Source: Methanobacterium sp.
Lineage (GTDB): Archaea > Methanobacteriota > Methanobacteria > Methanobacteriales > Methanobacteriaceae
Length of the DNA: 59,784 nt
Direction of reading: 5' to 3'
Assembly: GCA_021372715.1 (NCBI GenBank)
Contig: JAJFTX010000045.1
Span: 1-59,784 of the forward strand
Positions within the stretch are counted from its first letter, which is position 1. Each line of letters opens with the position of its first letter. The translations under genes were made by a program, and so were the position numbers. Shown piece by piece: positions 27,053 through 53,008 of this stretch. The notes beneath the pieces were generated by a model. That model worked only from the letters and a program-made list of their open reading frames with translations. It ran no database searches and was not told the origin of the DNA.

Positions 27053-27061
27053 AGTAATACT
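27053..27061. promoter_or_regulatory. AGTAWTACT palindrome copy 1 (core of the perfect 15-bp palindrome AATAGTAATACTATT, 27050-27064)
   Basis: Abuts the TTTATATT TATA-like box about 45 nt upstream of the TctA-like gene. Confidence 0.4.
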
Positions 27062-32561: not shown

Positions 32562-33533
32562 TTAATTTGGTGGTTTATTATTTTCCTGTTCTTCTTCCAG
32601 TATGTGCAACATTTTATGATAGTTTTCCTCACCTAATTCGTGCAAAAGCCGGTGATGGAGTTGATTTTTAATCAGATGTAAAAGATTATGAAAAGATTTT
32701 TCTCCAATAGCATGTAATATCTCATGAAAGGCATCTTCAACGGTTAATTTAACTTTACATTGCACTCCATTCTTTTTAAGTAGATATAAAAGTTCTGCTG
32801 ATTTCGGTGACTTTAGATGGGCTTTTTTAAGTGTTTCGTAATCATTGAATATTTCCTCAGGAGTTCCCTGGCCAATGATCTCACCATCATGTAGAACGAA
32901 GATCTTATCAGCAAACTGGGTGACCATCTCCACATCGTGGGAGGCGATGATGATGCTCATATCCTCCCGATTTAGCATGTATAGTATTTCCATGACTTGT
33001 TCAACACCCTTGGGATCCAGGCCGGTGGTAGGCTCATCTAAAACCATGATCTCCGGACGCATGGCCAGAATACCTGCAATGGCAACTCTTTTTCTCTGCC
33101 CACCGCTGAGGTGATGTGGGGCTTTTTTTTCAAGTCCACTCATCCCCACCATTTTTAGGGCTTCCTCCACCCTTTCATCAACTTCATCATCAGAGAGGCC
33201 TAAATTCATAGGCCCGAATGCTACATCTTCAATCACGGTAGGTGCAAATAACTGATCATCCGGGTTTTGAAAAACAATACCTACTTTTTGTCTGATTTGG
33301 AGTAGTTCCTTTTTTTTATAAACTGCTGCTTCACCATCAATTTTTATCAGGCCGGAAGTGGGCTGGTTTATACCATTGAAATGTGCAAAAAGGGTTGATT
33401 TACCTGCACCATTGGATCCGATAATGGCTACTCTTTCACCTTCTTTTATTTCAATATTGATATCGCGAAGGGCTGAGGTGCCGTCTGGATAGGTGAAGCT
33501 CATATTTTCGGTTTTAATAATTGTTCTTACCAT
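32562..33533 (-). CDS. cbiO: ECF transporter ATPase component CbiO/NikO with an unusual histidine-repeat C-terminal tail
   Basis: Walker [22 protein letters not shown] signature, Walker B MVLDEPT. Extra ~55-aa tail with four HxxLH-type repeats. Confidence 0.9.
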
Positions 33534-33592
33534 AAATTTTCCTCATAGGTTTCTTTTATGCACATTTTCATCCCGCATTAAAAACTATTTTT

Positions 33593-34423
33593 TTATCCGA
33601 TGCGAATTCCCAAAAATCCATAATGTTCAAACAATAACATAGCTCCAATCTGCAGGCATGCTACCAAAGCTATAGTTACTATAATAAAAGTATACTCTCT
33701 AGACCCGATTTTCCTTTTTTTATCATGATAAAGATTTGATTCATCAGAAAATCCCCGGCTGGCCATACTCAGGTAAATAGTTTCTCCATGTTCATAGGCC
33801 CGCAGAAACATCATGCCCACAGTGTATCCTAACTGTCTCATCCGCCATTTATATGGAAGTTCTTTATTAAAGGCATCAAAACATCTTGCTTTCTGAGCTT
33901 GGGATATGCGGTGCAGTTCATCATAGAACATAAATAGGAACCTGATCATGAGACTAAAAATCATAGCAATCTCACGAGGCATACCCAACTTCCGGAATGA
34001 CTGCACAACTTCTTGCATGGGACTTATTGAAGATAAAAGCACGATAGAAGTAAGGGACACTATTAGACGGGACACTAAAAGCGCAGCCCACATTAATCCC
34101 TCGTAGGTGATCTGCAAACCGAAAGCACCGGACCAGATTACAGTACCGGGATGTATGAAAGGCTGAAATAATATTATTAAACCACCAAAGGGTAGAAGTA
34201 AAAGAACTCTGGTTACAGTGGTTTTAAAAGATACATTGGATATCCAAATAAGCATTAAAAGGTAGATCTCCAGGAAAATCATTACCATTATCTGAGTTGA
34301 AAAAACAGCATACACAATGATGAATATCAATATAATTAGCTTTATTCTCCCATCCATAGAATGAAGCGAACTTTCCTTACTGGTCTCTCTTTCAAGATCT
34401 ATTACTGAGCCTGTTCTATTCAT
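33593..34423 (-). CDS. cbiQ: ECF transporter transmembrane (T) component CbiQ
   Basis: Polytopic protein with the conserved ARxxR-type coupling helices (AQKARCFD, ASRGF). Positioned between the cbiN-like gene and cbiO. Confidence 0.85.
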   Translation of the reverse strand: MNRTGSVIDLERETSKESSLHSMDGRIKLIILIFIIVYAVFSTQIMVMIFLEIYLLMLIWISNVSFKTTVTRVLLLLPFGGLIILFQPFIHPGTVIWSGAFGLQITYEGLMWAALLVSRLIVSLTSIVLLSSISPMQEVVQSFRKLGMPREIAMIFSLMIRFLFMFYDELHRISQAQKARCFDAFNKELPYKWRMRQLGYTVGMMFLRAYEHGETIYLSMASRGFSDESNLYHDKKRKIGSREYTFIIVTIALVACLQIGAMLLFEHYGFLGIRIG

Positions 34424-34505
34424 ATATTTCACAATGATTTTAATGATTCAAATTTACTTTAAAAATATTCAAGTGTAATAAAACAAATAAAAAAAAATAA
34501 AGAAG

Positions 34506-34805
34506 TTATTTAGAGGCTTCTGGTGGGCGTCTTCTTTTAAATAACTCAGCAACTCCATAGGCTATTAACAAAGTTATGATTATGCCCAGAGCAAGCGCTG
34601 CTATTTGTCCAATTGCTTCCAAACCTTCAATAGAGTAGTCAGGGAAGGGTGATTGGAGAACAGGTTCTGTTTCGGCTACGTTTAGGTTTTCAGCTGATTT
34701 TTCCAAACCATCCGGGTCTGGGGATGCTAAAAATGGAGACATCACAGCTATCACCAGGCAGATGATCACCCCTCCAATAACAAAGTATTTATCCTTGGTG
34801 CTCAT
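34506..34805 (-). CDS. PDGLE-domain small membrane protein (CbiN/NikN-like ECF accessory component)
   Basis: 99 aa, two transmembrane helices, [10 protein letters not shown] motif. The start overlaps the cbiM stop. Confidence 0.8.
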
Positions 34806-35476
34806 TTGGCTGTCACCTCACTTTGTTCGGGTTTTATTTCCTCTAAATTTTTATTCCGGTTCCAGGCAAGCAGATCGGGTCTAATTTTCTCCAACACATA
34901 TATTACGACTACTGTTAACACGGCTTCTATGATACCAATGAATGCGTGGTATATTCCCATCATTGCCAGTCCTTCAACTAGTGGGAAAGTACCGGCAAAA
35001 GCCATTTCTAAAGCAGTTGCTAAAGCTGCCAGGAAGATAGATAACCATGCGGCAACGCCTATCGCAGGATATTTCCCAATGGATTTTCTCAGGCCTTTGA
35101 ATGTGTAAAGCCCTACAACACCAGCTATAATACCCATATTAAGTACGTTAGCACCCAATGCTGTGATTCCTCCATCTCCGAAGAATAACCCTTGTACCAA
35201 AAGTACAATGGTAAATACTATAATCGCTGCTTCCGGGGCGCAGAATACAATGGCTACTAAAGCTCCACCTACCATGTGCCCACTGGTACCGAATGGAATA
35301 GGCATGTTCATGGACATTATGGCAAATATACCTGCGGCTAAAACTGCCATCAAAGGAACCATTTTTTCATCAAGATTCTTCCTTGCCCAATTTAGGGAGA
35401 AGTACAATGCAACTATTAAAATAACATAGTATATAGCGCACTGCCACAATGGAATAAAACCATCTGGTATATGCAT
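34802..35476 (-). CDS. cbiM: ECF transporter substrate-capture component CbiM/NikM (Ni2+/Co2+)
   Basis: Begins with MHIPDGF, the metal-coordinating N-terminus of CbiM/NikM. Seven-TM-type hydrophobicity. Strong AAAGGAGG ribosome-binding site. Confidence 0.92.
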
Positions 35477-35522: not shown

Positions 35523-35531
35523 AGTATTACT
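35523..35531. promoter_or_regulatory. AGTAWTACT palindrome copy 2 (cbiM promoter, between TATA box and probable transcription start)
   Basis: On the minus strand reads TTTATAAGTTAGTAATACTTAAAT, about 45-55 nt upstream of the cbiM ATG. Confidence 0.4.
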
Positions 35532-35633
35532 AACTTATAAATCATTTATATAATATGTAATAACTCTAAATTACTTAAATACCCTCAAATCCTCAATAAA
35601 ATTCTGAATTATTATAATATAAAGTTTACTAGC

Positions 35634-35642
35634 AGTATTACT
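35634..35642. promoter_or_regulatory. AGTAWTACT palindrome copy 3 (distal cbiM upstream region)
   Basis: Exact AGTATTACT, 10 nt from a CTTTATATTA TATA-like box on the minus strand. Confidence 0.35.
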
Positions 35643-35814
35643 TAACATCCAAAAAACTATTTAATAGTATTAAAAAATTATTACTTAAATACCATTTAAC
35701 TGAATTTTTGTAATAATTTCAAAATTTTTCATGATTCAATGCTAATATTTGAAAAAAAAATTTAAATATTTTCTATCCTTTTTAGAATAAATTATAGTTT
35801 TGAATTTTTGGTGA

Positions 35815-36204
35815 TTAAACAGTTCTACCTAGTTGCACCACCTCAAATTCATCCATATCCACACTGCCTATAGTACGTAGACATTCATCACTGGGTAAAC
35901 TCTCCAATTCGTTAATATTCATGTCTTTTTCTTTTTTTAGACCTCTCATAAAATATTTAAAATCTGGTCCTAATTCATCCTTTATCCAATAACCCCTGCC
36001 AAGGTGTTTAAGTTCATCTTGGTTGAATTCTATAGTTAATTCTTTTATTTTGCCTAACAACTTAGCTGATGGTTGTTTATAGGTTCCCATCTCCAGTGCA
36101 GTATATATGTAGAAAGGAATTTCCAGTTTTCTGGCTAATTCTCTTTGTGTGGTGTGTGTATGTTTTCGGTATCCTAAAATCAGATATTTTAAATCATCTT
36201 CCAT
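35815..36204 (-). CDS. XRE-family helix-turn-helix transcriptional regulator
   Basis: 129 aa. N-terminal HTH (TQRELARKLEIPFYIYTALEMG). GGAGG ribosome-binding site. Surrounded by AGTAWTACT palindromes. Confidence 0.7.
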   Translation of the reverse strand: MEDDLKYLILGYRKHTHTTQRELARKLEIPFYIYTALEMGTYKQPSAKLLGKIKELTIEFNQDELKHLGRGYWIKDELGPDFKYFMRGLKKEKDMNINELESLPSDECLRTIGSVDMDEFEVVQLGRTV

Positions 36205-36273
36205 TTTTTTGACCTCCGAATTTTCGCTGATTAATAGTATAATTAGCTTCTTATAAATACTTTTCTTAAAAAA

Positions 36274-36282
36274 AGTATTACT
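36274..36282. promoter_or_regulatory. AGTAWTACT palindrome copy 4 (upstream of the XRE regulator gene)
   Basis: Exact AGTATTACT, 70 nt upstream of the XRE regulator ATG and next to TATA-like sequences. Confidence 0.4.
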
Positions 36283-36454
36283 TATAATAATTTCACCTTT
36301 AAATGTTTCATACTTTTAGAATTAAGGTATATGTGGTTTTATTTTAGTTATTACTTTTAAAAAGCTTTTAATTAGATAATAATAAATTTTTACTTGCTAT
36401 TTTTTTAATTAATTAAAAAATTAATAATAATTTCTTTATGTAAAACCATTAATT

Positions 36455-36463
36455 AGTAATACT
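36455..36463. promoter_or_regulatory. AGTAWTACT palindrome copy 5 (MFS transporter promoter, directly upstream of TTTTTATAG)
   Basis: AATTAGTAATACTTTTTTATAG. 17 of 18 nt match copy 6 at 50815-50832 (the two differ only at the central W). Confidence 0.4.
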
Positions 36464-36523
36464 TTTTTATAGATAATTATTTATATTTTTACTAATATCA
36501 TATTAAATAGGAGGTTTGGAGAA

Positions 36524-37876
36524 ATGTTTAACAATTTAAGGACCAGAATTTTAGCAGTTATTTTTGCCGGGGCTATATTAATAGCTATAGATGGTTCTAC
36601 CATCAGTCCAATATTGGAATCGATACAAAAATCATTCGGAGTGAATGAAAGTGTCATAACTTGGATATTTAACATGGAAATCCTTTTCTTGTTATTGGCT
36701 ACACCTATAATGGCTAAACTATCTGATAAATATGGCCGAAAAAATATTTATATCTTAAACGCTGCTTTATTCTTACTGGGAACATTGATTGTTGCATTTT
36801 CCCCTTCTTTTGAAATATTACTTATAGGAAGAGCATTACAAGGTGTCGGTGCTGTTTTATCAGTATTAGCCATCACTATCATCGGAGATTACTTCGATGA
36901 AACCCGTGGTACTATATTAGGAGCTTTTGGAGTTATAATCGCCCTGGTTTATGCCTTAGGTCCAGCTATATCTGGTTTCCTGGTAGGTTTCGGTTGGCAC
37001 TGGGTTTTCATAATTAACATTCCGGTGGCTGCTATAGTGGTTCTTCTGGGATATTCCCTTCTACCTGAAAGCAAAACCAGTGAAAAATACGCCAGTTTTG
37101 ACTGGAAAGGGATGACCTTCCTGGCAATAGCCATAGCATCCATTGCCTATTTCATATTCAACCTCTCAGGAGAAGTAGCAGCAACCACCCAATACGTTGT
37201 GCTTGGAATTTTCATCCTGGCATTAATTGCATTCTGGTGGATTGAAAGAAAAGCCATAGAACCCATTTTACCCATCGGGCTTTTAAAAGGAAGAGATACT
37301 CTTATAGCCAGCGTGGTGACTCTGGTGGGTTATCTAGCCATGGCTGGAACCTATTACTTTTCTACATACGCTTCCATGGCTTTCAGTCTCAGTTACTCCA
37401 CAGCAGCCTACATGATACTGCCTATGACCATTGCCTCCCTTATAACCACTCCGGTTGTGGGTAAGCTACTGGATAAATTGGGAGCCAAACCAATAATGGT
37501 TTTTGGTGGGGCTCTAACGGCTGTAGGAATGCTAATTTTGAGTTATACCTCAAACATATACTTATTCGCATTTTCTTTAGTGCTCATCGGTATTGGTAAC
37601 GCATCCATTGTGGGTAACGCTCTTTACTATATCTTCCTGGATGAAACTGGTAAATCTGAAAGAGCATCTGGCCAGGCCCTCCTGAACATTCTCCTGAACA
37701 CTGGTTCACTTTTAGGAGGGGCAATTTTAGCCTCAGCCCTGGACTTCACCGCTTCTGGTGCTGCTTCTTTCCGCAATGTTTATCTTTATCTGGCTGTGAC
37801 TTACGTTATCCTGACCATTCTATCTCTGGGACTTAAAGGTAGAATTCTGGGAAGTAAAAGGCCAGTTGAAGGATAA
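36524..37876 (+). CDS. MFS transporter (drug:H+ antiporter-like, probably 12-14 TM)
   Basis: Motif A-like LSDKYGRKNIY, with repeated transmembrane helices throughout. Confidence 0.85.
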   Translation: MFNNLRTRILAVIFAGAILIAIDGSTISPILESIQKSFGVNESVITWIFNMEILFLLLATPIMAKLSDKYGRKNIYILNAALFLLGTLIVAFSPSFEILLIGRALQGVGAVLSVLAITIIGDYFDETRGTILGAFGVIIALVYALGPAISGFLVGFGWHWVFIINIPVAAIVVLLGYSLLPESKTSEKYASFDWKGMTFLAIAIASIAYFIFNLSGEVAATTQYVVLGIFILALIAFWWIERKAIEPILPIGLLKGRDTLIASVVTLVGYLAMAGTYYFSTYASMAFSLSYSTAAYMILPMTIASLITTPVVGKLLDKLGAKPIMVFGGALTAVGMLILSYTSNIYLFAFSLVLIGIGNASIVGNALYYIFLDETGKSERASGQALLNILLNTGSLLGGAILASALDFTASGAASFRNVYLYLAVTYVILTILSLGLKGRILGSKRPVEG

Positions 37877-38589: not shown

Positions 38590-39303
38590 TTAAGCCACAG
38601 TCACCTTCTGATACTGGGGGTTTTCACTGATCATTTTAAGATAATCATCAAAAGAAGAAAACCAGGATACCTGAACTTCATATAAGTAATCCTCCGCAAT
38701 TTTTTTGGCCTTCAACATCTCCTCCCTGGTTGGTGACCTCCATGATGTACCGGGCACTGGGATATAACCAGTAATATGATAATGAATATTAGGATCAATA
38801 TCTGCAATGAATCTGGCAATCTCTTCAATTTCATCATAATCCACCTGCCCAGGAATGTAAACACTACTAGCATCAACCATGATTCCCATTTGGTGGGCTT
38901 TTTGGAAGTTTTGAAGCACTGGTTTATTGGACATTCCAGTGTATTTGATATAAAAATCTTCAGATAAACTCTTAATACTCACCGAAATAGCATCAATATT
39001 TTTAGGTGGGAGGTTATAACCATTTGAATGCCCTATCTTGGTATAGATGCCTAAATTGTTTTTTGCAAAATCAGCCACTTCATATAATAGAGGATAAGTG
39101 GATGACTCTCCCCCTACAAAATGAACCCTTTCTATATCCAGTTCACTTAGAACCTCTTTGATCTTTTTAAGATCCAAGAATTTATTCGGTACTGTTTGGT
39201 TCCCAAGTTTGTAAGAACACCAGGTGCAATTAAAATTACAGCCATAGTTGTGGAGGTTAGCCCGTTTAAATTCTTCACAATAAGTTATTTTGTATATTGC
39301 CAT
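38590..39303 (-). CDS. Radical SAM protein (small, activase-like), divergent from nikR
   Basis: CNFNCTWC = Cx3Cx2C near the N-terminus, GGE motif (VGGESS). 237 aa. Confidence 0.8.
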   Translation of the reverse strand: MAIYKITYCEEFKRANLHNYGCNFNCTWCSYKLGNQTVPNKFLDLKKIKEVLSELDIERVHFVGGESSTYPLLYEVADFAKNNLGIYTKIGHSNGYNLPPKNIDAISVSIKSLSEDFYIKYTGMSNKPVLQNFQKAHQMGIMVDASSVYIPGQVDYDEIEEIARFIADIDPNIHYHITGYIPVPGTSWRSPTREEMLKAKKIAEDYLYEVQVSWFSSFDDYLKMISENPQYQKVTVA

Positions 39304-39331: not shown

Positions 39332-39386
39332 GATCCTGGAAATAATTAAATAATAGTAGGTAGCACCTTTTCCAGGATCGTGCTAC
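39332..39386. promoter_or_regulatory. Interleaved inverted repeats in the radical SAM / nikR divergent promoter (candidate NikR operator)
   Basis: GATCCTGGAAA (39332-39342) pairs with TTTCCAGGATC (39369-39379). GTAGCAC (39360-39366) pairs with GTGCTAC (39380-39386) across a 13-bp spacer. A third GGTAGCAC copy lies at 39437-39444. Confidence 0.4.
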
Positions 39387-39486
39387 TTATATTGGTTGTG
39401 GTATAAATGTTTTACGATAGCAAACTTTTTAATGATGGTAGCACTATGAAAATATAAATATCAAAGTTAAACATCTGAGGTTAAAT

Positions 39487-39894
39487 ATGACGGTGGAAAG
39501 AGTAGGAGTATCCTTTGAACCAGAACTACTAGAAAAATTCGATGATCTACTTAAAAAAAAAGGCTATACCAACCGATCAGAGGCTATCCGGGATCTGGTT
39601 CGAAAATCAATCATTGAAGCACACATTGAAAGTGAAGATGAAGATGTCATCGGAACGTTGACCATAATCTACGATCATGATGTGGGAGATGTTACCAACG
39701 AACTTCAGCACTATCAACACTTCCATCTAAGCGAGATAATTTCCACCACCCATGTTCACATTGCAAAATACAACTGCCTAGAGGTTTTAGTGTTAAGGGG
39801 TAAAGCAAAAAGCGTCAGAAAACTAGCAGACCATATCCGAGCCATAAAAGGCGTGAAACATGGAGAACTAGTAACCACCAAATCAACAATTTAA
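39487..39894 (+). CDS. nikR: Nickel-responsive transcriptional regulator NikR
   Basis: N-terminal ribbon-helix-helix (RVGVSFEPELLEKFD...GYTNRSEAIRDLVR) and a C-terminal ACT-like domain with the HxHx5C nickel site (THVHIAKYNC). Confidence 0.92.
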   Translation: MTVERVGVSFEPELLEKFDDLLKKKGYTNRSEAIRDLVRKSIIEAHIESEDEDVIGTLTIIYDHDVGDVTNELQHYQHFHLSEIISTTHVHIAKYNCLEVLVLRGKAKSVRKLADHIRAIKGVKHGELVTTKSTI

Positions 39895-39921: not shown

Positions 39922-40230
39922 TTGGATATTTTTGATGAAATTGATTTTTTAGAAAATCAATTCAAGGATATGGAATTTCAAGATCTTATGGATGACCCAG
40001 TATTGCAGAGAGCTTGTCTAAAAAGCCTAGAAATTATTGGTGAAGCCGTTAAAAATATTTCTGATAACTTTAAAAGTGAAACCCCCGAAATTGAATGGAG
40101 AAAAATAGCAGGATTAAGAGATAAATTAATCCATCACTATTTTGGCGTAGATTGGGAAATAGTTTGGAATGTAATTAACAATAAGATTCCGGGAATTAAA
40201 GAGCATCTAAACACCATAAAACATATTTAA
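39922..40230 (+). CDS. HepT-like (DUF86) ribonuclease toxin domain protein, with no MNT partner nearby
   Basis: Rx4HxY active-site motif RDKLIHHY and LEIIGEA motif. Only a TTG start is available. Reading frame is continuous with nikR apart from the nikR TAA stop. Confidence 0.7.
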   Translation: MDIFDEIDFLENQFKDMEFQDLMDDPVLQRACLKSLEIIGEAVKNISDNFKSETPEIEWRKIAGLRDKLIHHYFGVDWEIVWNVINNKIPGIKEHLNTIKHI

Positions 40231-40461: not shown

Positions 40462-43400
40462 TTAAATTGTTGTCCTGCTGGGGTAGTGGTCGTAGGTGGG
40501 TTCGTTGCCGTCTATGGGTCTTGGTTCGTTGCTGGTCCAGTCGCTCCAGTAGTTTCCATTGGTTCTTTTGTTGAAGTTGTTTTTCTCTCCATTGACTGCA
40601 TATGCCTGTAATGGGTTGTTGATGAAGTTATTCTGGTATACGGAAGTGTTACGAGCGGTGTCTAATATCACTCCACCCCATCCGTTGCTTTCGATGGTGT
40701 TGTGATGTATTACCGTACCATTACTGTTTCTGGCAAATACTCCAATCACACCGTTACTTTTTATCTGCGAACCGGCAATGGTGTTGCTGTTGGAGTTTAG
40801 TATGGCCACTCCAATATCACTATTACCTTGGATGTTGTTACCGGATAGGGTGTTACTTGCTGAGCCGTTAACTATGTAAACTCCTTCTATGTTATTGCTG
40901 ATTTCATTACCGTTATTTATGGTGTTCCCCGTGGCATTGTCCAGGCATATACCTACCCAGCCATTGTTCTGCACGGTGTTAGCACTTATGGTGTTGGTGT
41001 TGCTATTCTGGATGAATAATCCCATAACTCCATTATTAGATAAAGTATTGGAATCTATGGTGTTGCCTGTGGAGTTGTTGAGGATGTCAATGCCGTTGTT
41101 GGTGTTGTTATGGATGTTGTTTCCTGCTACTAGGTTGCTGTTGGAGTTGTTGGCCAGGTAAACTCCTTCCGTGTTATTGCTGATCTCATTACTGTTACTT
41201 ATGGTGTTTCCGGTGGCGTTGTCCAGGCATATGCCTACCCAGCCATTATTCTGCACTGTGTTATTGGTTATGGTGTTGGTGCTGCTGTTCTGGATGAACA
41301 AACCAATTACCGCATTATGGGATAGTATGTTGGAATCTAGGCTGTTGCCGGTGGAGTTGCTGAGGATGTCAACACCATTATTGATGTTGTTATGAATGTT
41401 GTTACTGTTTATGAGGTTGTTGTTGGAGCTGTTTACTATGTAAAGCCCTTCCAGATTACCAGCGATTTCATTACCGTTGATAATGTTTGCAGTGGATTGA
41501 TCCAGACAGATTCCGGTCCAATTATTATTGGTGATGGTGTTTCCGTTGATGGTGTTTGCAGTGGATTTATAGAGTTTGATTCCCATGAAATTGTTGTTTA
41601 TGCTGTTTCCGCTTATTTGGCAGTTATCTGCAGAGTACAAACGTATACCTGCAGAGTTGGTCGCTCCGGTCAGGTTGAATCCGGTGATACTGGTTCCGCT
41701 GCCTGTTGAACTGATACTGAATATGGGAATGTCCGGGTTAGCAGGGTTAACAGTTACAACACCCGTAGTATTGAACGTTAACTGCTTATCGATGAAGACA
41801 TTCTCCGTATAGGTCCCATTATGCACAATGAGAGTATCACCATCCATTGTTAGAACATCTTCAATTGCATCCTGTATACTGGTGTAAACCAGATTTGTGC
41901 GAACGTTAGTGATGATCATCGACGGATCCACACTTATCAGGTCTGTTTTGATTTCTTCATCAGATCCTCCGGGTCCGGTTACTGTTAATTTAACGGTGTA
42001 GGTACCCGCAGCAAAAGACCATAGCGGATTCTGCTCAGTACTATCCACCGTACCATTGTTGTCAAAGTCCCAAGCATAACCAGTAGCATCGGTAGACTGA
42101 TCAGTAAACTGCACAGTTAAAGGTGCAAATCCACTAACAACATCTGCAGTGAAAGCAGCGACTGGGTTCATGGTTAGGGTTAGTATGGCGTTTTGTAGGG
42201 CCATGTATGAACCACCGTATACTCCGAGTTCGTTGGTGCCGTTTTGTAGGGCAGGTACGACGTTGTAATAGTTTAATGATGGGTCACTTCCTCCAGCGTT
42301 GCTCAGGAGGATGGTTTGTCCGTTGAAGAGTATGCTTCCTGTATCACCCTGTCCTGATGGTGTGATGGTTATCATTTGAGCTGAAGATACATTGCTGGTG
42401 GTTACATTATTGAACATTGCAAAGCCTGTGGCTGGTTGATGTTGTAGGACGTCGTATCCTTCATCTATCCATATTTTTCGGTATGGTTGAGTGGCAGATT
42501 GGTAGACCACGATTAGGATTGTGGCGTAGCTGGCTGTGCTATGGGTGGATAAGACTGCTACGTTGTTGCCTGTTGTATTGAAGTATGGTGTTACATCGTA
42601 GATGTCCTGACCATCATCCTGGTCAACATAATGTGCTAGGGGTGTTGTGATGTCGGTGCCATTGAAATTTAAAGTGTATCCTGGGTTGCCATACCAGGTC
42701 CAAGCCTGATATAGGCGGGCGGTTAGGATGATTGCACCTTCTGGAATATTTAAATCACTAGGAGTAAATGTGGCAGTTCCCGTTCCGGAATTAGGGTATG
42801 GATATGCGAACCAGCCGTAACCACCATATTGGGCCATGGCTAATCCTACATTACCTTCAACATAATATTCTGTTTCCAGGTCGGTTCCATTGTAGTATCT
42901 TCCCCCATTCCAGGGATCACCTGTGTAAGTATTGAAATTTCTGGTCTGCACTGGTGATATATTTCCACTAACATCCACCGCGATGAACTTCACAACAATG
43001 GAAGAATATAACGGGATTGTAATAGGATCGCTATATGGTGTGCTATTTGTGGTGGGGTCTGTTCCATCGGTGGTGTAGTAGATTATGGGGTTGGAGTCCA
43101 TGTTGTCAGTGGCGGATAATGTGATATTAGTTCCATTTTGGGTTGCGTCAGCAGTAGGTGCTTCATTATCTGTGATGTGATATATTTCGGTTTGTACTGG
43201 TGAGATGTTTCCACTTTTGTCCACTGAGATGAACTTCAAAGTCAGGTTAGTCGTTTGGTAGATGTCAATGGGGCCATTATATAATTGGCTGTTGGTGGTG
43301 GGGTCTGTTCCATCAAGGGTGTAGTAGATTGTTGGGTTTAGATCGGCATTATCCGCTGCTGATAGGGTTATTAGTGTTCTTATGTTGTAGTTTCCACCTA

Positions 43401-46400
43401 TTGGGCTGGCCACTACGGTTGGTGATTCTGTGTCGTTGATGTTGTAGAGTTCTGTTTGTACAGTTCCGATGTTACCAAATCGGTCCGCGCTTATGAACTT
43501 TAAGGTGGTATTTTCAGTGATGATGATTGGAATGGTGTACATTGCACTGTTTGTAGTGGGGTCTGAGCCATCTGTGGTGTAATAAACCACTGGATAGGGG
43601 TCGTAGTTGTCTGTGGCTGATAATGTAACTGTTATTCTTGATGTGTATGTTCCACTGGCAGGGTTAACTGTGACATTGGGCGCTTCATGGTCGTCTGGAA
43701 GTGGATTTACGGTGATGTAATCGGTTTTTGTTATGGAATTACTACCACCAACATTGGAGGCTGTTAATTTCACTGTGTAAACACCTGTGGTGTTGTAGAT
43801 CCATGTGGGATTTTGTTCTGTGCTGTCAACCGTACCGTCATTGTCGAAGTCCCAGGCCCATGCTGTTGGAGTGCCGTTGGTGGACTGATCAGTGAAGTGC
43901 ACAGTTAGAGGCACATAATCAAAGGTCCTATCAGCATTGAAATCAGCAACAGGAGGTCTGATGTCAAGTTTACCGAAGAAAGCATCTGAACTTCCGCCTG
44001 AAGCTGGTTGGAAGGCTCCGGGTGTTGTCGGAAGCGCAGTATAATTATCGTATCCTGTTATGTACACGTTCCCCTCATTATCCACATCAATAGCGGTTCC
44101 CATATCTGAGCCTGATCCACCGTAGTATGTGCTGTATATCAGATTACCGTTGGAATCGAATTTGGAGATGAATGCATCGTGGGCTGCTGCACCTGAACCA
44201 GGATTTTTGGTTGTCCGGTAAGCTCCAGGGGTTGTGGGGAAGTTTGTAGAATTGGTTCTTCCACCAATGTATACATATCCATTTTTATCAATTACTATGC
44301 TATGCCCATATTCTGATGTATTTGTATCTCCCCCACCTCCAAGGTAGGTGCTGAAAACCAAACTTCCTGCAGGGTCAAACTTAGTAACGACAACATCTGA
44401 AACACCATTAATATTTGTTTGGTAAGCTCCAATTGTAGTAGGGAAATTTGAAGAGGTTGTACGTCCAGTGATGTAGATATCTCCTGCTTCACTCAATGCA
44501 ATCCCTATACCATAACTTGAAGCAGTTACTACGGGCGAGCTATTAGCACTACCTCCAAGGTATGTGCTATATATTAGAGCCGTTCCTTCGGAATTTAGTT
44601 TAGTGACAAATATATCAAAGCCTCCTGATGGGCTTGCTTTAGTGGCTTGATAAGCTCCAGGTGTGATGGGGAAATTTGTAGAATCAGTATATCCTGTGAT
44701 GTAGGCATTTCCATTGCAATCTACTGCAATACCAAATCCATCGTCGCTGCTGCTACCTCCAAGGTAGGTACTGTAAACCAAGTTTCCACTGCTATTAAAC
44801 TTAGATACAAAAATATCATCATATCCGGCTTTGCTGGTTTGGTAAGCGCCAACAGTTGTAGGGAAGTCGGTAGATGAGGTATATCCAGTAATGTATACAT
44901 TCCCATCATTATCGATGGCTATATTTCCTCCTATCTTACAACTACTGACTCCTGCTAAAGTATATCCAACTTTATCCGATCCACTTCCACCCAGATAAGT
45001 ACTGTAGGTTAGATCACCGTTAGAATTAAATTTAGCCAGGAATAAGTCGTCACTGCCAGCATTGGTATTTTGGTATGCGTTGCTTGTGGTTGGGAAGTTG
45101 GTAGATGCGGTATATCCAGTAATGTAGATATTCCCATTTGTATCCACTATAATACCTGATCCGTAGTCATTTCCACTCCCACCTAGGTAAGTGCTGTACA
45201 TCAATGTTCCGCTAGAATTAAATTTAACAAGGTAGGCATCAGTTCCACCGGCGTTTGTGGTTTGGTATGCGTTGCTTGTGGTTGGGAAGTTGGTGGATGC
45301 TGTTTGTCCAGTTATATATATGTTTCCATCATCATCTACTTTAATATCAGTTCCAGACTCTGCACCGCTTCCTCCAAGCATTGTTGCGTAGTTGTGTGGT
45401 ATGACTGCGATGTAGTTGGTTTTGGTTTCTGATACTGTTCCACCGGGTCCTGTCAGAGTCAATTTCACAGTGTAAGTTCCTGGAATAGTGTAGGTGTAGG
45501 TTGGATTTTGCACGTTACTGTCTGTCACATCGTCATTGTTGAAGTCCCAAGCCCAACTGTTTATAAATCCTGTTGAGTTATCTGTGAAATTTACAGTTAG
45601 AGGTTCAAAGCCGGAGGTAGTGTCTGCTGTGAAATCAGCTATTGGAGGTGCGGTGTATTCTTCCCGTATGGTAAGCGTGGCTAGGTTCATTTTTAGTGAG
45701 CTTCCTACATTGGCGTAGGTTAGGGTGGTGTTTGTTCCGGTGTTGATGTTGCTGGTCACGTCCCATTGGTGTTCTTTGTAGTAGGTTCCGGTTTCTGTGA
45801 GGTTGCCGGTTAGGGTGGTTCCGTTGAGGTTGTAGGTTCCGTCTGTTCCGGATAGGGCTACGGTGTTGAGTGTGGCGCTGGAGACCTGTCCGTTGAAACC
45901 GCTGGTGTTGAAGGTGCTGGTTGATGGTGAGGTGGCTGTGTTTATCCAGTCCTGTCCATTAAGGACCCAGTAGTGCACCTGGTCGGTGTCTCCGTCGTTG
46001 TAGGCTACGGTGAGGGCTAAGAGTTTTATCCGTCCGTCGTAGTCTGTTCCGCCCATGTTCTCGGTTTTAACGTAGAGGGTGGGGTTGTTACATGTTATGA
46101 GGCTGGTGACGTCGTACCATACCTGATAATCGGAATAAACCCGGTTGCAGTGGTCGTTCAGCCAGTAAACCGTTCCGTCTGTGCTACCAGGGATGTTCAT
46201 ATCCTCCACACCTAATAGTTCTCCGGGGTCGTCGTAGTCGCCGTCTCCGTTACCGTCTATTTTAACGGTGGTTCTTACTGGCCAGTTTGCTGATCCAGAG
46301 CCGGAGTATACGTTTACGTAAACCCAGGCCGAGTCAATACTGGTATAAGCCGGTAATGTGTTGGCCTGTGTGACTTCGTTGGTCGCTCCCAGGGTGGAGG

Positions 46401-46569
46401 AAGGCCAGCCATCAGTAGTATTAACGTATAAGTCCCCGGATACTGTACCGGTCTGGTTCTCTTGTAAGGGCGTTCCTGCTGAAGCAGCTCCGCTTAAAAC
46501 CAGTACAAACAGCACGGTCAACGTTAAAAATAACATATTCTTCCTATTTATTGGTGAAATCTTATTCAC
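40462..46569 (-). CDS. Giant (2035 aa) secreted adhesin-like protein
   Basis: Domains read from the translation: signal peptide; two DUF3344-like regions; three PKD domains; about 8 SBBP beta-propeller repeats (YSTYLGGSG.D...GN.YITGYT.STNFPTT.GAYQ); three chitobiase-C-like modules (YYTTDGSDPTTNS); C-terminal parallel beta-helix (PbH1/NosD-like) repeats. Confidence 0.88.
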   Translation of the reverse strand: MNKISPINRKNMLFLTLTVLFVLVLSGAASAGTPLQENQTGTVSGDLYVNTTDGWPSSTLGATNEVTQANTLPAYTSIDSAWVYVNVYSGSGSANWPVRTTVKIDGNGDGDYDDPGELLGVEDMNIPGSTDGTVYWLNDHCNRVYSDYQVWYDVTSLITCNNPTLYVKTENMGGTDYDGRIKLLALTVAYNDGDTDQVHYWVLNGQDWINTATSPSTSTFNTSGFNGQVSSATLNTVALSGTDGTYNLNGTTLTGNLTETGTYYKEHQWDVTSNINTGTNTTLTYANVGSSLKMNLATLTIREEYTAPPIADFTADTTSGFEPLTVNFTDNSTGFINSWAWDFNNDDVTDSNVQNPTYTYTIPGTYTVKLTLTGPGGTVSETKTNYIAVIPHNYATMLGGSGAESGTDIKVDDDGNIYITGQTASTNFPTTSNAYQTTNAGGTDAYLVKFNSSGTLMYSTYLGGSGNDYGSGIIVDTNGNIYITGYTASTNFPTTSNAYQNTNAGSDDLFLAKFNSNGDLTYSTYLGGSGSDKVGYTLAGVSSCKIGGNIAIDNDGNVYITGYTSSTDFPTTVGAYQTSKAGYDDIFVSKFNSSGNLVYSTYLGGSSSDDGFGIAVDCNGNAYITGYTDSTNFPITPGAYQATKASPSGGFDIFVTKLNSEGTALIYSTYLGGSANSSPVVTASSYGIGIALSEAGDIYITGRTTSSNFPTTIGAYQTNINGVSDVVVTKFDPAGSLVFSTYLGGGGDTNTSEYGHSIVIDKNGYVYIGGRTNSTNFPTTPGAYRTTKNPGSGAAAHDAFISKFDSNGNLIYSTYYGGSGSDMGTAIDVDNEGNVYITGYDNYTALPTTPGAFQPASGGSSDAFFGKLDIRPPVADFNADRTFDYVPLTVHFTDQSTNGTPTAWAWDFDNDGTVDSTEQNPTWIYNTTGVYTVKLTASNVGGSNSITKTDYITVNPLPDDHEAPNVTVNPASGTYTSRITVTLSATDNYDPYPVVYYTTDGSDPTTNSAMYTIPIIITENTTLKFISADRFGNIGTVQTELYNINDTESPTVVASPIGGNYNIRTLITLSAADNADLNPTIYYTLDGTDPTTNSQLYNGPIDIYQTTNLTLKFISVDKSGNISPVQTEIYHITDNEAPTADATQNGTNITLSATDNMDSNPIIYYTTDGTDPTTNSTPYSDPITIPLYSSIVVKFIAVDVSGNISPVQTRNFNTYTGDPWNGGRYYNGTDLETEYYVEGNVGLAMAQYGGYGWFAYPYPNSGTGTATFTPSDLNIPEGAIILTARLYQAWTWYGNPGYTLNFNGTDITTPLAHYVDQDDGQDIYDVTPYFNTTGNNVAVLSTHSTASYATILIVVYQSATQPYRKIWIDEGYDVLQHQPATGFAMFNNVTTSNVSSAQMITITPSGQGDTGSILFNGQTILLSNAGGSDPSLNYYNVVPALQNGTNELGVYGGSYMALQNAILTLTMNPVAAFTADVVSGFAPLTVQFTDQSTDATGYAWDFDNNGTVDSTEQNPLWSFAAGTYTVKLTVTGPGGSDEEIKTDLISVDPSMIITNVRTNLVYTSIQDAIEDVLTMDGDTLIVHNGTYTENVFIDKQLTFNTTGVVTVNPANPDIPIFSISSTGSGTSITGFNLTGATNSAGIRLYSADNCQISGNSINNNFMGIKLYKSTANTINGNTITNNNWTGICLDQSTANIINGNEIAGNLEGLYIVNSSNNNLINSNNIHNNINNGVDILSNSTGNSLDSNILSHNAVIGLFIQNSSTNTITNNTVQNNGWVGICLDNATGNTISNSNEISNNTEGVYLANNSNSNLVAGNNIHNNTNNGIDILNNSTGNTIDSNTLSNNGVMGLFIQNSNTNTISANTVQNNGWVGICLDNATGNTINNGNEISNNIEGVYIVNGSASNTLSGNNIQGNSDIGVAILNSNSNTIAGSQIKSNGVIGVFARNSNGTVIHHNTIESNGWGGVILDTARNTSVYQNNFINNPLQAYAVNGEKNNFNKRTNGNYWSDWTSNEPRPIDGNEPTYDHYPSRTTI
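40690..41529 (-). repeat. Three tandem ~282-bp (94-aa) repeats in the beta-helix region of the adhesin gene
   Basis: Residues about 1681-1773, 1774-1867 and 1868-1960 align (NNGWVGICLDNATGNTI...GLFIQNS.TNTI..NTVQ). The plus-strand shadow ORFs 40889..41161 and 41171..41395 translate almost identically. Confidence 0.85.
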
Positions 46570-47002
46570 CTCCTTTTAATATTTTTATTATAAATCAGTC
46601 ATTAAATATCGAGTATTACAATTTAAGAAAAAATCAACGTTTTATTCATACTTTTAAGCTTATAAACACCTCCAATTTTCTATTATAAAATAGATTAAAA
46701 AGAAACTTAATATATAATACTTTTCATTTAATTTTTATTATTACTAATCGGGTGAAACACAATGAAATTGTAATACTATACGATGTAAGATTAATAATTA
46801 TTTGATAAAAAAAGGAATAAAAGTATTAAAGAAAATAGTCAGTCCATAAAAAAAGTATATTTAATACACTAAATCATGATTTACGATTTATGATAAAGTA
46901 ATTTAATTATTTATTTGATAAAAGAGAAAAGCAGGATTCAGTAGTCTTCTATTGATCTCCTTTGGGAGGTTCCATCGGGAAATACGGTTATCCAGCTTTT
47001 CT

Positions 47003-47710
47003 TTATTCAGCAATCCTTTCTCTTCTACAGCTTCTACTTATTATCACATTTTTTAGATGTTTTTTAGCTCGGGAATATGCATTTTCCATTTCTAATGGGG
47101 TGGGATTTCTGGAAATATTTCATTGGTTGGTTTATAATCGTTTATTCTGTATTCTATCTCCGGATTGATAGTAGAAATGAATCTGGCAATATTTTCTATT
47201 TCCGCATCATCTACTATCCCCGGAATATACACTGTTTTGACGGCCAATTTGGTTTTTTGATGAATCACTGGTGCATTTTTTAAAATTGGTTGATTAGATA
47301 AGCCCGTATACCACCTATGCAGCTCTTCATCATATGCCTTTAAATCAAGCATCACTTCATTTAATCCAGCTTCAACCAGCTCATCAACATATCCTTCATC
47401 TAGAAGATAGCCATTGGTTTCTAATATCACATCACCAAAATTCAACCCGAAAACCAGATCAAGCAGATAATTCCGATTAAGGGTGGGTTCGCCTCCGGTT
47501 ATTAAGATTTCTTCTGGTAATTTTTTATAATATTGTATGGAGGCTTTTTTAATGAGGTTTACCAGTTCATCAATAAACTATTTTTTCCCCCATTACATCT
47601 CTTACTGGACTAAAACAGCCGTGGCATGCAAAATTACAGTCTGAAAGGGTTATCCAAACCCTTGGCGCGATTTCTGATATGGTAATAAAAGGTATATGCC
47701 GATGTTCCAT
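47003..47710 (-). pseudogene. Decayed radical SAM gene, related to (same family and length as) the gene at 38590..39303, with at least two frameshifts
   Basis: Fragment A 47710..47570 (MEHRH...CNFACHGC...GEKIVY then stop). Fragment B continues in another frame to 47092 (DELVNLIKK...ITGGEPTL...ETNGY...). Fragment C 47089..47003 (MENAYSRAKKHLKNV) aligns with the paralogue C-terminus. Confidence 0.7.
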
Positions 47711-47788: not shown

Positions 47789-48217
47789 CTATTCTAGGGC
47801 ATCATCTACTCTATCACCGATTATATCAGCGATCCTGGGATCTGCTCCTAATGGTTCGATGTAGACTATTTCACCATCAAATTCTATTTCTTCCTGTTTC
47901 ATATGTAGATAATGTGCACCTTCACGTCCATTACCTAAACCCATCATGTAAGGAATATCCTGTTTGGTGTGAAGACCATGGGCTAGGAAAACAGGCATAG
48001 CAATAATTTTAGTTACACCTTTTTTTGCCAGCATATTTATTGCACTGGGGATGGTCGGTTTCTCCACATTCATAAATCCTACTTCAACAGGATAATCTGA
48101 CTTTTCTTTATACTTTTCAGCCAGTTCAAATATCACTTTGTTACCAGAGGATAAACTGCTTCCATGCCCTATTAGTAAAATGCCAATACTTTCATCTGAG
48201 TGAGAATTTTTCTCCAT
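47789..48217 (-). CDS. cfbA: Sirohydrochlorin nickelochelatase / small CbiX-type chelatase (coenzyme F430 biosynthesis)
   Basis: About 142 aa. LLIGHGSS N-terminal motif and the AMPVFLAHGLHT motif of CbiX(S). Start placed at the ATG at 48217. Confidence 0.82.
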   Translation of the reverse strand: MEKNSHSDESIGILLIGHGSSLSSGNKVIFELAEKYKEKSDYPVEVGFMNVEKPTIPSAINMLAKKGVTKIIAMPVFLAHGLHTKQDIPYMMGLGNGREGAHYLHMKQEEIEFDGEIVYIEPLGADPRIADIIGDRVDDALE

Positions 48218-48288
48218 TATATTCACTTCCTTCAATAAGAAAATCGTTTCTAAATAAATAAATTTAATTCAATCACATTTAATTTAAG

Positions 48289-49092
48289 TTAGACTATTTT
48301 TCTGATCAATACGGATGTATTGTTAATCTTACCTGTTGGTAGTATCATAACCTCCTTATGGAAACCACGGGTGGCTTTTTCTGTAACTGGAGAATATAAT
48401 ATTGCCCTCATACCGGTGTATGTCCTGTAGATTACAGGGGTTATTGTGTCCATTATATCCCATAGGTTGGTAAATATCCGCTCTTTGGGTTCGGCCAGGG
48501 CAGCTACCATTATCACCGTATAATCTATGTCCTTTACACTGTTTTCATCTCCCTCTACTACCTCAATTTCAGATTCCAGTCCCAGTTTTTTTAACACCTG
48601 GCGGGATAGTTCTGCCACTTCTGGCAGGATCTCCACACTCACACATTGTGATCCGTACAGTTTGTTGAAGAGGATCAGGGTCAGAGGAAGGGGTCCGCCA
48701 CCTATAAACACCACTTTCTGTTCGGGGGTGAATTTAACCAGCTGATTTTCGTTTTTTATAAGTCCCTGATAGCGATGGTAGAAGTGGAATGATTCCAGGG
48801 TTTTCCAGGGTTCATCTGAATTCAATATTGCCATTGCATTTTCAGTTTCCAATCTAGACCCTAACCTAGTATAGAACTTACGGATTAATTTAAGGGCTTC
48901 ATTCATTTGTTGATCATCTAGGATGTGCTTGGCAGAGTCAAAATCAATTTCCTGGTCATGGGCAATTACTTCAACTGAATCTAAAAGAGATATAATCTCA
49001 TCAATGGGTGTTTCATCAGTTTTATATTCTTTATAATCTTCAAGAGAATGGGCTATTGCTTTTATTTTATCCCAGTATTTATAACAACTCAT
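48289..49092 (-). CDS. Nicotianamine synthase-like protein (archaeal thermonicotianamine synthase type)
   Basis: 267 aa. Starts MSCYKYWDKIK. VFIGGGPLPLT SAM-binding loop, MVAALAEPK and YRTYTGMRAILY motifs, as I recall them from the Methanothermobacter NAS homologue. Confidence 0.75.
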   Translation of the reverse strand: MSCYKYWDKIKAIAHSLEDYKEYKTDETPIDEIISLLDSVEVIAHDQEIDFDSAKHILDDQQMNEALKLIRKFYTRLGSRLETENAMAILNSDEPWKTLESFHFYHRYQGLIKNENQLVKFTPEQKVVFIGGGPLPLTLILFNKLYGSQCVSVEILPEVAELSRQVLKKLGLESEIEVVEGDENSVKDIDYTVIMVAALAEPKERIFTNLWDIMDTITPVIYRTYTGMRAILYSPVTEKATRGFHKEVMILPTGKINNTSVLIRKIV

Positions 49093-49302: not shown

Positions 49303-49881
49303 TTATAAATTATGATTCATTTTAAAAGAAACATCATCATAGTCGATAATTTTCCCCACATCATCGTTTAAAATCACCTTTAATAGGTCTAAAGCTTTTT
49401 CTACGCCCTTTTTTTGTCTTTTTAGTAGCTGAGATGAGCATAAAGAGGTAAGATCAGCGTAGAATCCTGAAGTGGTAACTATGGTGTACTTTTCGGTGGA
49501 TAGGGCAATACCGCCCCTACCAATACCGGCGGTGGTACCTATTCCTATATCGGCTTTGGAAACATCCATTATGGCATTGGCCATTAGGATTGCTACTTTT
49601 TTGTCATATTTTTCATCGTACACTTTGACCCCTTTGATTATTTTAAATGGTGTGGGGGCATCGATTTTTAAAATATTTTTTAAACCGGATAATGTGGGAA
49701 CGAAAACACCACATATAACGGATATATCCTGTTTAAACACATTTTTTACAGTTTTAATAGGCTTATTTGGATCATATAAATATTCACATCCAAATTCTCC
49801 TTCATAACCCTGAGATAATGCATGTATCTCTCGTGCGATTAATCCATGGGTGAAACATTCAGCGGTAGCGATTTTTATCAT
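49303..49881 (-). CDS. hcgF: HcgF, [Fe]-hydrogenase FeGP-cofactor biosynthesis protein (UPF0254 / CinA-C-like)
   Basis: 192 aa. MIKIATAEC places the conserved Cys at position 9, the known thioester-forming residue of HcgF. Located in the hcg cluster. Confidence 0.78.
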   Translation of the reverse strand: MIKIATAECFTHGLIAREIHALSQGYEGEFGCEYLYDPNKPIKTVKNVFKQDISVICGVFVPTLSGLKNILKIDAPTPFKIIKGVKVYDEKYDKKVAILMANAIMDVSKADIGIGTTAGIGRGGIALSTEKYTIVTTSGFYADLTSLCSSQLLKRQKKGVEKALDLLKVILNDDVGKIIDYDDVSFKMNHNL

Positions 49882-50547: not shown

Positions 50548-50649
50548 AGATTTATTGCCTCAGAGGGGGGAAATTTTTTTTCTTTTGCATAAAATTTTTC
50601 GATAAGTTAAACTAGAATGAAAACAACATAATAATTGATAGAAATTTTA

Positions 50650-50720: not shown

Positions 50721-50738
50721 AAATTTTCATCTATTTTC

Positions 50739-50780: not shown

Positions 50781-50819
50781 AAAGGGGGCGCATCTTATAT
50801 AAATACTTTTTTATAAATT

Positions 50820-52951: not shown

Positions 52952-53008
52952 TTATCCTTTAATTAATTCTAGTTCGATTATCCTATCTGATTGTAGTTTA
53001 ATTTCATC

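Follow-up and report, generated by a model that had tools for sequence, protein, structure and literature searches.

A compact palindrome at Methanobacterium promoters as a probable NikR-family operator of a nickel regulon

The palindrome AGTAWTACT and the promoters that carry it

The window analysed here comprises positions 1 to 59,784 of contig JAJFTX010000045.1 of Methanobacterium sp. (assembly GCA_021372715.1). It encodes an operon for nickel and cobalt uptake, the regulator NikR, [Fe]-hydrogenase (hmd) with hcg genes, and the four-gene operon elpXABC. A nine-nucleotide palindrome, AGTAWTACT, with the informative core GTAWTAC, recurs at promoters of this window. We propose that NikR-family proteins use it as an operator for nickel-dependent repression, and we put the probability of this reading at about 0.75. 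The genes of interest, identified by Pfam and NCBIfam profile scans of the window proteins, are the following.

ATG at 27113, plus strand: TctA-family transporter
32562-35476, minus strand: cbiM-(PDGLE)-cbiQ-cbiO, Ni/Co ECF-type uptake operon
35815-36204, minus strand: XRE-like protein of 129 aa, sub-threshold HTH_3/HTH_19
36524-37876, plus strand: MFS (DHA2-like) transporter, from profile scans
39487-39894, plus strand: nikR, NikR_C (6.8e-28) and RHH_1; type 1, beta-strand R-V-G-V-S-F
40462-46569, minus strand: surface protein of 2035 aa with DUF3344, SBBP beta-propeller, PKD and NosD/beta-helix domains
47789-48235, minus strand: CbiX
48289-49092, minus strand: nicotianamine-synthase-like (NAS-like) protein
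49303-49881, minus strand: hcgF
49906-50547, minus strand: ThiF-like hcgE candidate
50981-54031, minus strand: hcgD, hcgC, hcgB, hcgA
54086-55141, minus strand: hmd ([Fe]-hydrogenase)
55728-58944, plus strand: elpXABC (unknown protein of 128 aa, truncated FdhA-like, FdhB-like, MvhD-like)

The palindrome AGTAWTACT is present in eight exact copies, at 27053, 35523, 35634, 36274, 36455, 50820, 55168 and 55687, all of which the first-pass annotation of the window had located correctly. The intergenic share of the window, delimited by a gene map drawn up from the list of open reading frames, amounts to 7.8 kb with 24% GC and holds all eight copies, as had been claimed. Coding DNA holds none, and the earlier impression that it contains imperfect copies only is borne out by 12 matches at eight of the nine positions; intergenic DNA has 10 such matches. 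Dinucleotide shuffles of the whole window lead to an expectation of 0.79 copies (maximum 3), and 1000 shuffles of the intergenic DNA only to 0.14 (maximum 2). The core GTAWTAC is found in 10 intergenic copies, compared with 0.94 expected by shuffling. The two that are not part of a nine-mer lie at 46613 and 46770, and the single coding copy is at 40707. The outer A and T are conserved at 60% over all related sites and at 83% in paired sites; therefore, the nine-mer is a fair consensus.

A TATA-like box adjoins each exact copy, as had been noted before and as is seen by inspection. Among 42 intergenic regions of more than 30 bp, six contain the motif. These are the promoters of cbiMNQO, the XRE-like gene, MFS, TctA, the giant surface protein, hcgE/F, hmd and elpXABC, and each region adjoins metal-related or Hmd/Elp genes. 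The remaining 36 regions are empty, and thus the motif is no general promoter element. A scan of the window against Rfam at the gathering threshold returned no match, so no riboswitch accounts for the cbiM or hcgE leaders. The individual sites and modules are listed below.

27053-27061: TctA promoter site, abutting TATA-like ATTTATATT; the ATG is at 27113
35523-35563: cbiM proximal pair, exact AGTATTACT at 35523-35531 and 6/7 partner GTAATAA at 35557-35563
35634-35673: cbiM distal pair, exact AGTATTACT at 35634-35642 and 6/7 partner GTATTAA at 35667-35673, N25 apart
36252-36285, minus strand: XRE-like promoter module, GTAATAC-N14-GTATTTATA, exact site at 36274-36282
36452-36485, plus strand: MFS promoter module, GTAATAC-N14-TTATTTATA, exact site at 36455-36463
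46612-46777: sites upstream of the surface protein, GTATTAC at 46613-46619 and the pair TTATTAC (46738-46744)-N25-GTAATAC (46770-46776)
50800-50828, minus strand: hcgE/F promoter module, GTAATAC-N14-GTATTTATATAAG, with a leader of about 250 nt after it
55169-55196: putative hmd operator, full dyad GTAATAC-N14-GTAGTAC (on the hmd strand GTACTAC-N14-GTATTAC)
55217-55244: second, weaker hmd dyad, GTAATAT-N14-ATATTAC, the right half of which is the hmd TATA box
55687-55695: elpX site, GTAATACTAC, which follows TATA-like GTTTATTACA directly and precedes the elpX ATG by 33 nt

The sites occupy several positions relative to the core promoter. Those of TctA and the surface protein, like those of cbiM in Methanobrevibacter, abut the TATA box on its upstream side, where the TFB-recognition element (BRE) lies. 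At the XRE-like gene, MFS, hcgE and the distal hmd dyad, 14 nt separate the site from a half-site-like TATA box downstream of it. The proximal cbiM, elpX and hmd sites are located between the TATA box and the probable start, or across the start. Between the hmd dyad and the ATG lie 26 nt, and a conserved TATA box is found about 21 nt upstream of the dyad. Taken alone, the N14 partners in the window are no more than suggestive, as they are AT-rich matches at five of seven positions, and the case for them rests on the cross-species data.

The first-pass annotation had described four copies bracketing cbiM, the XRE-like gene and MFS. The copies are there, but the description is incomplete, as the units are the cbiM pairs and the modules of a site, 14 nt and a TATA box at the XRE-like gene, MFS and hcgE. 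On the cbiM strand, the pairs read TTAATAC-N25-GTAATAC and TTATTAC-N26-GTAATAC when 6/7 partners are allowed, and measure 32-33 nt from centre to centre. The cores of the proximal pair, N26 apart, flank TATA-like sequence, and its exact site is 47 nt upstream of the ATG. The distal exact site is followed 10 nt further on by TATA-like CTTTATATT. The modules of the XRE-like gene (36252-36285) and MFS (36452-36485) form a 34-nt inverted repeat with 85% complementarity, in which the two cassettes are mirror images of each other.

Several additional repeats accompany the sites. The sequence ATTACTTAAATACC, described earlier as a degenerate repeat near 35571 and 35680, is present at 35570-35583 and 35680-35693. 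The 110-nt distance between the copies gives the region upstream of cbiM its two-module look. The repeat, which shows no clear conservation, contains TAAATAC, the reverse of the TATA-linked GTATTTA, and a 6/7 site, TTATTAC, overlaps with its second copy. At 21023-21040, upstream of a T2SSF-like gene (19987-20922, minus strand), AATATTACT matches the palindrome at eight of nine positions and is followed by TTTTTTATAG. The 13-mer said to be common to this near copy and the MFS promoter, TACTTTTTTATAG, is indeed found at both 21028 and 36460. The near copy may be a weak extra site or a chance match.

Conservation and spacing of the sites

Related loci were collected by an Hmd-based scan of species genomes, which yielded 80 loci with 10-kb flanks and a best Hmd identity of 95%. 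In every group of related loci, intergenic DNA carries 10-60 times more cores per kb than coding DNA does. Footprinting of orthologous promoters, suggested in the first-pass annotation, shows that the sites are kept in Methanobacterium, Methanothermobacter and Methanobrevibacter while their surroundings drift. The hmd dyad GTACTAC-N14-GTATTAC recurs in at least 12 loci of Methanobacterium and Methanothermobacter, where the TATA box AAAACATTTATATTAC precedes it by about 21 nt and the ribosome-binding site follows closely. Its half-sites are retained and its 14-nt spacer varies by species, which is the classic footprint of a two-part operator. Several species have a GTRNYAC-like half-site further upstream, exactly 14 nt from the hmd TATA sequence ATATTAC.

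The modules that end in a TATA box are similarly constrained. In the hcgE promoter, GTAATACT and GTATTTATA are invariant and exactly 14 nt separate GTAATAC from GTATTTA in all 11 species aligned. The XRE-like promoter retains the site, the N14 spacer and (G/T)TATTTA in five species; the four orthologous promoters are those of L005, L006, L007 and L022. In six species, the elpX site comes immediately after the TATA box, and TTTATAAnnGTAATACTACTTA is kept in L002, L003, L008, L009 and L057; in the Methanothermobacter locus L013, a site lies upstream of elpA. The M. formicicum loci L081-L083 have GTAATAC upstream of the MFS gene and of an SBBP/Big-domain surface protein. The orthologous promoters compared are those of hmd, hcgE, the XRE-like gene, elpX, MFS, the surface protein and, as described next, cbiM.

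Sites are present at cbiMNQO promoters in the window and in about 30 related loci. Pairs of like architecture are found in L002, L022, L090 and about 20 Methanobrevibacter loci, and the distal order of a site, N10-12 and CTTATAAT or CTTTATATA is kept in L002, L006, L090 and Methanobrevibacter. A metagenome cbiM that is 95% identical and has other neighbours retains the layout. The cbiM promoters of Methanobrevibacter contain four to six copies, which typically bracket the TATA box just ahead of the ribosome-binding site. Arrays in this genus occupy the divergent hmd-hcgG region in 47 loci and the cbiM promoter in 25, and sites are also located upstream of genes for GNAT, NAS-like and NikA-like binding proteins.

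The spacing of paired sites falls into narrow classes. Exact GTRNYAC pairs in the 80 loci are separated by N14 (8 pairs), N24 (18), N25 (44) or N26 (9), and every other spacing from N8 to N29 accounts for at most three pairs. The distances of 21 bp (N14) or 31-33 bp (N24-26) from centre to centre correspond to two or three helical turns and place both sites on one DNA face. The N24-26 class makes up 71 of the 79 exact pairs of these classes, in contrast to the N11-N16 of NikR dyads. No hidden central half-site was found in the N25 spacers, which are AT-rich with T-rich and A-rich edges.

The leader that follows the hcgE/F module contains a second conserved element, at about 50645-50725 on the minus strand. 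It consists of GGGGGACATC, about 50 nt including the invariant TTCGCTCAAATGTATCA, and GATGTCCCCC. The element is present in 11 Methanobacterium loci, for which RNAalifold gives an 11-bp stem with compensatory changes in five pairs, and it has no Rfam match. It is a candidate cis-regulatory RNA or small RNA ahead of the genes for the iron-guanylylpyridinol (FeGP) cofactor.

NikR and other candidate binders

A palindrome of 7-9 bp would suit a ribbon-helix-helix (RHH) dimer and would be too compact for a helix-turn-helix dimer. NikR is an RHH tetramer, and the window encodes a NikR with an RHH domain and a nickel-binding domain, whose H, HVH and C nickel ligands align with those of NikR from P. 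horikoshii and E. coli (solved structures 2BJ1 and 1Q5V). The half-site GTATTAC/GTAATAC is identical at six of seven positions to the predicted NikR box of delta-proteobacteria, GTGTTAC-N13/14-GTAACAC (Rodionov et al. 2004, PMC545781), and both fit GTRNYAC. The final intergenic stretch, which follows elpC and runs to the end of the window with no further gene, holds AGTAACACT at 59615-59623, and this includes a perfect copy of the delta-proteobacterial half-site, GTAACAC.

The decisive comparative evidence for a link to NikR comes from beyond Methanobacteriaceae. Metagenomes were scanned for AGTAWTACT-N22-24-AGTAWTACT, and in six contigs with 45-59% GC (L103, L113, L116, L141, L152 and L168) nikR starts 30-70 bp downstream of such a pair. 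For four of them (L103, L113, L152 and L168) the gene on the other side was scanned as well; it encodes the high-affinity nickel transporter NicO and is divergent from nikR. In a further contig, L126, the pair is upstream of cbiM. L168 encodes MCM and a helicase of the archaeal Hel308 type, which marks at least this organism as an archaeon distant from Methanobacteriaceae. By our estimate, about 3 in 100,000 randomly chosen positions would be within 100 bp of a nikR start, and therefore the nikR-adjacent pairs in 6 of the 27 higher-GC matches are not due to chance. Six other contigs (L091, L092, L153, L156, L165 and L175) contain the paired nine-mer in dense tandem arrays unrelated to nickel genes, for example with 83 cores in 6 kb or a 64-nt period. 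In these other organisms, the arrays represent either an unrelated repeat family or chance.

Several observations weigh against the assignment to NikR. We know of no characterised NikR operator with a spacing of 31-33 bp, those described being N11-N16. Only hmd has a canonical dyad of two half-sites, and most sites are single strong palindromes with weak or absent partners. GTAWTAC is missing from the promoters of the NikR2-type genes of Methanobrevibacter sp. 87.7 and M. thermautotrophicus. Many of the metagenome pair matches, from AT-rich DNA, are chance or unrelated tandem repeats, and the related loci were chosen around hmd or nikR and are thus not a neutral genome-wide background. In addition, the beta-strand signature R-x-S-x-S, which figures below in the choice between NikR paralogues, is also found in the NikR proteins of H. 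pylori and P. horikoshii. The H. pylori protein reportedly binds a different sequence, and therefore the signature does not fix specificity.

The promoter of the window nikR, shared with a divergent radical-SAM gene, carries a box of another type.

39360-39444: distinct NikR-type box, GTAGCAC-N13-GTGCTAC at 39360-39386 and a third GTAGCAC at 39438-39444, in the divergent nikR/radical-SAM promoter

Three of the four copies of GTAGCAC in the window are in this promoter. The dyad is kept, at N13 and with a differing spacer sequence, in M. formicicum (L081-L083) and Methanothermobacter (L084-L086), and none of the 80 hmd loci contains a match to GTAGCAC-N10-18-GTGCTAC. There is a strict division between the two boxes, with the GTAGCAC dyad confined to nikR promoters and GTAWTAC to others. 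The GTAGCAC dyad looks like a separate autoregulatory NikR box. The Methanothermobacter orthologue of the window NikR is encoded near CobN, and the window type fits NikR1 of M. marburgensis, which is induced together with CobN1 by nickel limitation.

A second NikR type, with the beta-strand R-I-S-M-S-L, is present in Methanobacterium, Methanothermobacter and Methanobrevibacter. Four aligned NikR proteins encoded next to site pairs (L103, L113, L141 and L168) have R-x-S-x-S-(L/V), as the NikR2 type does, while the window protein has R-V-G-V-S-F. Methanobrevibacter is not represented among the 120 best homologues of the window protein, which share 70% identity or more with it. Because the window NikR has its own box, GTAGCAC-N13-GTGCTAC, the binder of GTAWTAC is more likely to be an R-x-S-x-S type paralogue that would be encoded outside the window than the window protein itself.

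The window NikR may nevertheless bind GTAWTAC by tolerating variation at the two central half-site positions (GTRNYAC), with the tightest version of the box at its own promoter. Its gene is 3 kb from the cbiM and MFS promoters, and GTAGCAC, the GTAGTAC of the hmd dyad, GTAATAC and the delta-proteobacterial half-sites all fit GTRNYAC. The proximity of its orthologue to CobN, in view of the induction of NikR1 and CobN1 in M. marburgensis (PMC12350162), points in the same direction. We consider this unlikely, as the two box types are never mixed, the beta-strand (R-G-S) is unlike that of the NikR proteins adjoining GTAWTAC pairs, and the densest GTAWTAC arrays are those of Methanobrevibacter, the genus absent from the closest homologues.

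It is also conceivable that a transcription factor of Methanobacteriaceae other than NikR binds the palindrome, and that the likeness to NikR boxes and the adjacency to nikR are coincidental or belong to a separate system. The 31-33 bp spacing and the many single sites are atypical for NikR, and the two NikR2-type promoters that were checked do not carry the site. The content of the regulon is nickel-specific, however, no other regulator gene recurs beside the sites, and chance does not account for the six independent pairs close to nikR in high-GC contigs, where NicO or CbiM is encoded nearby; this makes such a factor a distinctly improbable binder.

The first-pass annotation had named the XRE protein or NikR as the binder, and had read the four copies around the XRE-like gene (35815-36204) as operators of an autoregulated local repressor. 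NikR as a family is supported as the best candidate by the likeness of the boxes and the adjacency to nikR; the XRE-like protein is not, and we regard its role as repressor as very improbable. In its favour, the gene is located between the cbiM and MFS promoters, its own TATA box is at a fixed N14 from a site in five species, and the 129-aa protein has a weak similarity to HTH_3 (E = 0.004). The HTH_3 and HTH_19 scores (E of about 0.004, 17.5 bits) are under the Pfam cut-offs, no Pfam or NCBIfam family exceeds its threshold, and one homologue has a precomputed match to PF01381. A word-seeded homology search, which can miss remote relatives, found 52 homologues, all with at least 54% identity, and every one with a named source belongs to Methanobacterium or Methanobacteriaceae. 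No homologue was detected by tblastn in the Methanobrevibacter and Methanothermobacter loci, whereas the motif is present in both genera and at nikR in distant archaea. General structural knowledge also indicates that 4-bp arms 5 bp apart are unsuited to a helix-turn-helix dimer. The protein was rejected as the binder on both distribution and site geometry. Because its homologues were found only in Methanobacterium and the motif is more widespread, the XRE-like gene looks like a member of the regulon rather than its regulator.

That the motif is a compositional by-product, a generic AT-rich promoter element or the residue of a duplicated cassette with no specific regulator is hardly credible and was rejected: the motif is AT-rich in intergenic DNA of 24% GC and two promoters have the 34-nt mirror-image cassette in common, but intergenic-only shuffles expect 0.14 copies, 36 of 42 intergenic regions are empty, the three genera retain the sites although their flanking and spacer sequences have diverged, the spacing classes are strict, and the motif also occurs in contigs with 45-59% GC.

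A putative nickel regulon and its control

The NikR-family reading builds on the non-random occurrence, conservation, spacing classes and gene content of the sites, and on their co-location with nikR and nickel-transporter genes in other archaea; from these we infer binding, nickel dependence, repression and the identity of the binding paralogue. In the proposed mechanism, one RHH dimer would bind each palindromic site. The sites would act as same-face pairs with 21 bp (N14) or 31-33 bp (N24-26) between centres, or alternatively as one strong site exactly 14 nt from a half-site-like TATA box (GTATTTA or ATATTAC). When nickel is sufficient, nickel-loaded NikR on sites that overlap or bracket the TATA box, BRE and start would block TBP, TFB and RNA polymerase. 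A NikR tetramer might span 32 bp by bending the DNA, or two tetramers might be involved. Upon nickel shortage, NikR would leave the promoters, which would release uptake by cbiMNQO, the MFS, TctA, NAS-like and GNAT functions and the surface protein, as well as the nickel-free hydrogen route composed of hmd, the hcg genes of its FeGP cofactor, and elpXABC as the substitute for the [NiFe] hydrogenase Mvh.

The claim that one regulon joins nickel and cobalt import, the MFS and TctA transporters, hcgE/F, hmd and a formate dehydrogenase-like operon is supported: the motif is found at all of them, and it is conserved at orthologous promoters in three genera. A rise of Hmd on nickel scarcity has been known in Methanothermobacter since the 1990s. 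The formate dehydrogenase-like operon at 55728-58944 matches elpXABC of M. marburgensis in gene set and in adjacency to hmd (PMC12350162). The nickel-limitation stimulon of that organism (Nature 2025, PMC12350162; earlier Afting et al.) comprises Hmd, ElpXABC, HcgG, nickel transporters, NikR1 and CobN1, all of which increase when nickel is scarce, and under this condition the Elp complex was shown in 2025 to take the place of the [NiFe] hydrogenase Mvh. By homology and synteny, the motif targets match the induced Hmd, ElpXABC, Hcg, transporters and NikR1/CobN1 of M. marburgensis. The gene set is the same, with ElpXABC adjoining hmd. The M. marburgensis study is proteomic and biochemical and names no promoter element (PMC12350162), whereas the cis element and its spacing rules come from the present analysis.

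The delta-proteobacterial box has 7-bp half-sites one base from GTATTAC/GTAATAC, and the hmd dyad has the same N14. It is located upstream of nikMNQO-type transporters, and NikR is predicted to repress a nickel-independent (Fe-only) hydrogenase when nickel is abundant (PMC545781); the same logic would apply to hmd here. In contrast to the bacterial box, the half-site described here is itself a perfect palindrome, and most sites are single or N24-26 apart instead of N13/14. The promoters are of the archaeal TATA/BRE type, with the TATA box often serving as the second half-site, and the putative regulon includes hcg and elp.

E. coli NikR represses nickel uptake in a nickel-dependent manner. The window NikR has the same RHH and nickel-binding architecture with aligned ligands, and the half-sites of the E. 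coli nikABCDE operator (GTATGA-N16-TCATAC; 1Q5V, 2HZV) are about two helical turns apart, as they are at hmd. The half-site sequence differs, the DNA-contacting beta-strand is R-T-T in E. coli and R-S-S or R-G-S here, and one known target operon there compares with at least eight promoters in 60 kb here. Occlusion of TATA/BRE or the start site is known from archaeal repressors such as MDR1, NrpR, Phr and TrmB. The sites described here share this geometry, which is common in archaeal repression, as they abut or overlap the TATA box, BRE or probable start, but the protein families and motifs differ.

The regulon may include further nickel functions. The NAS-like gene (48289-49092), the MFS gene (36524-37876), a radical-SAM gene (38590-39303) and, in relatives, a GNAT acetyltransferase gene cluster with nikR and cbiMNQO and carry sites, both in the window and in M. 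formicicum (L081-L083). This cluster looks like a nickel-regulated set for metallophore synthesis and export, comparable to staphylopine-type systems. The 2035-aa surface protein may be a surface or scavenging protein induced by nickel starvation. A 117-aa open reading frame at 47092-47445 covers profile positions 79-166 of the radical-SAM domain, its C-terminal half only, and a full 332-aa radical-SAM gene adjoins the NAS-like gene in M. formicicum; the short frame is probably a truncated or frameshifted gene. Directly downstream of nikR, positions 39922-40230 encode a HepT-like ribonuclease, the toxin of a HEPN/MNT-type pair, with no obvious MNT partner annotated.

NikR operators and nickel regulons are of a kind already known. 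What appears new, judged by the searchable literature, is the site, its spacing rules, the link to hmd, hcg and elp, and possibly the geometry. We found no description there of the site, of these rules or of this link, although an earlier description may exist, nor one of the regulator and DNA site of the nickel response of Hmd and Elp. We speculate, at slightly less than even odds, that 9-bp palindromes three turns (31-33 bp) apart, or 14 nt from a half-site TATA box, constitute a distinct class of archaeal NikR operator, with the core promoter bracketed or occupied by a single NikR assembly. This class would be the master switch of hydrogen metabolism in Methanobacteriaceae, between the nickel-dependent Frh and Mvh and the nickel-free Hmd and Elp, the same class would operate at nikR-nicO in unrelated soil archaea, and two paralogues with GTAWTAC and GTAGCAC boxes would form a two-tier nickel circuit. 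If the three-turn spacing is bound by one NikR tetramer, it would extend the known geometry of NikR-DNA complexes.

What emerges is a defined site with defined spacings, shared by three genera (rumen and gut Methanobrevibacter among them) at their promoters for hmd, hcg, elp and nickel uptake, and thereby a testable mechanism. A 25-year-old regulatory question becomes directly testable, and the 2025 discovery of Elp is extended. The nickel regulon of these methanogens would be predictable from sequence, with the candidate metallophore set of NAS-like, MFS and GNAT proteins, the TctA transporter and the giant surface protein as new candidate members, and the promoters may offer a nickel-controlled cassette for methanogen genetics.

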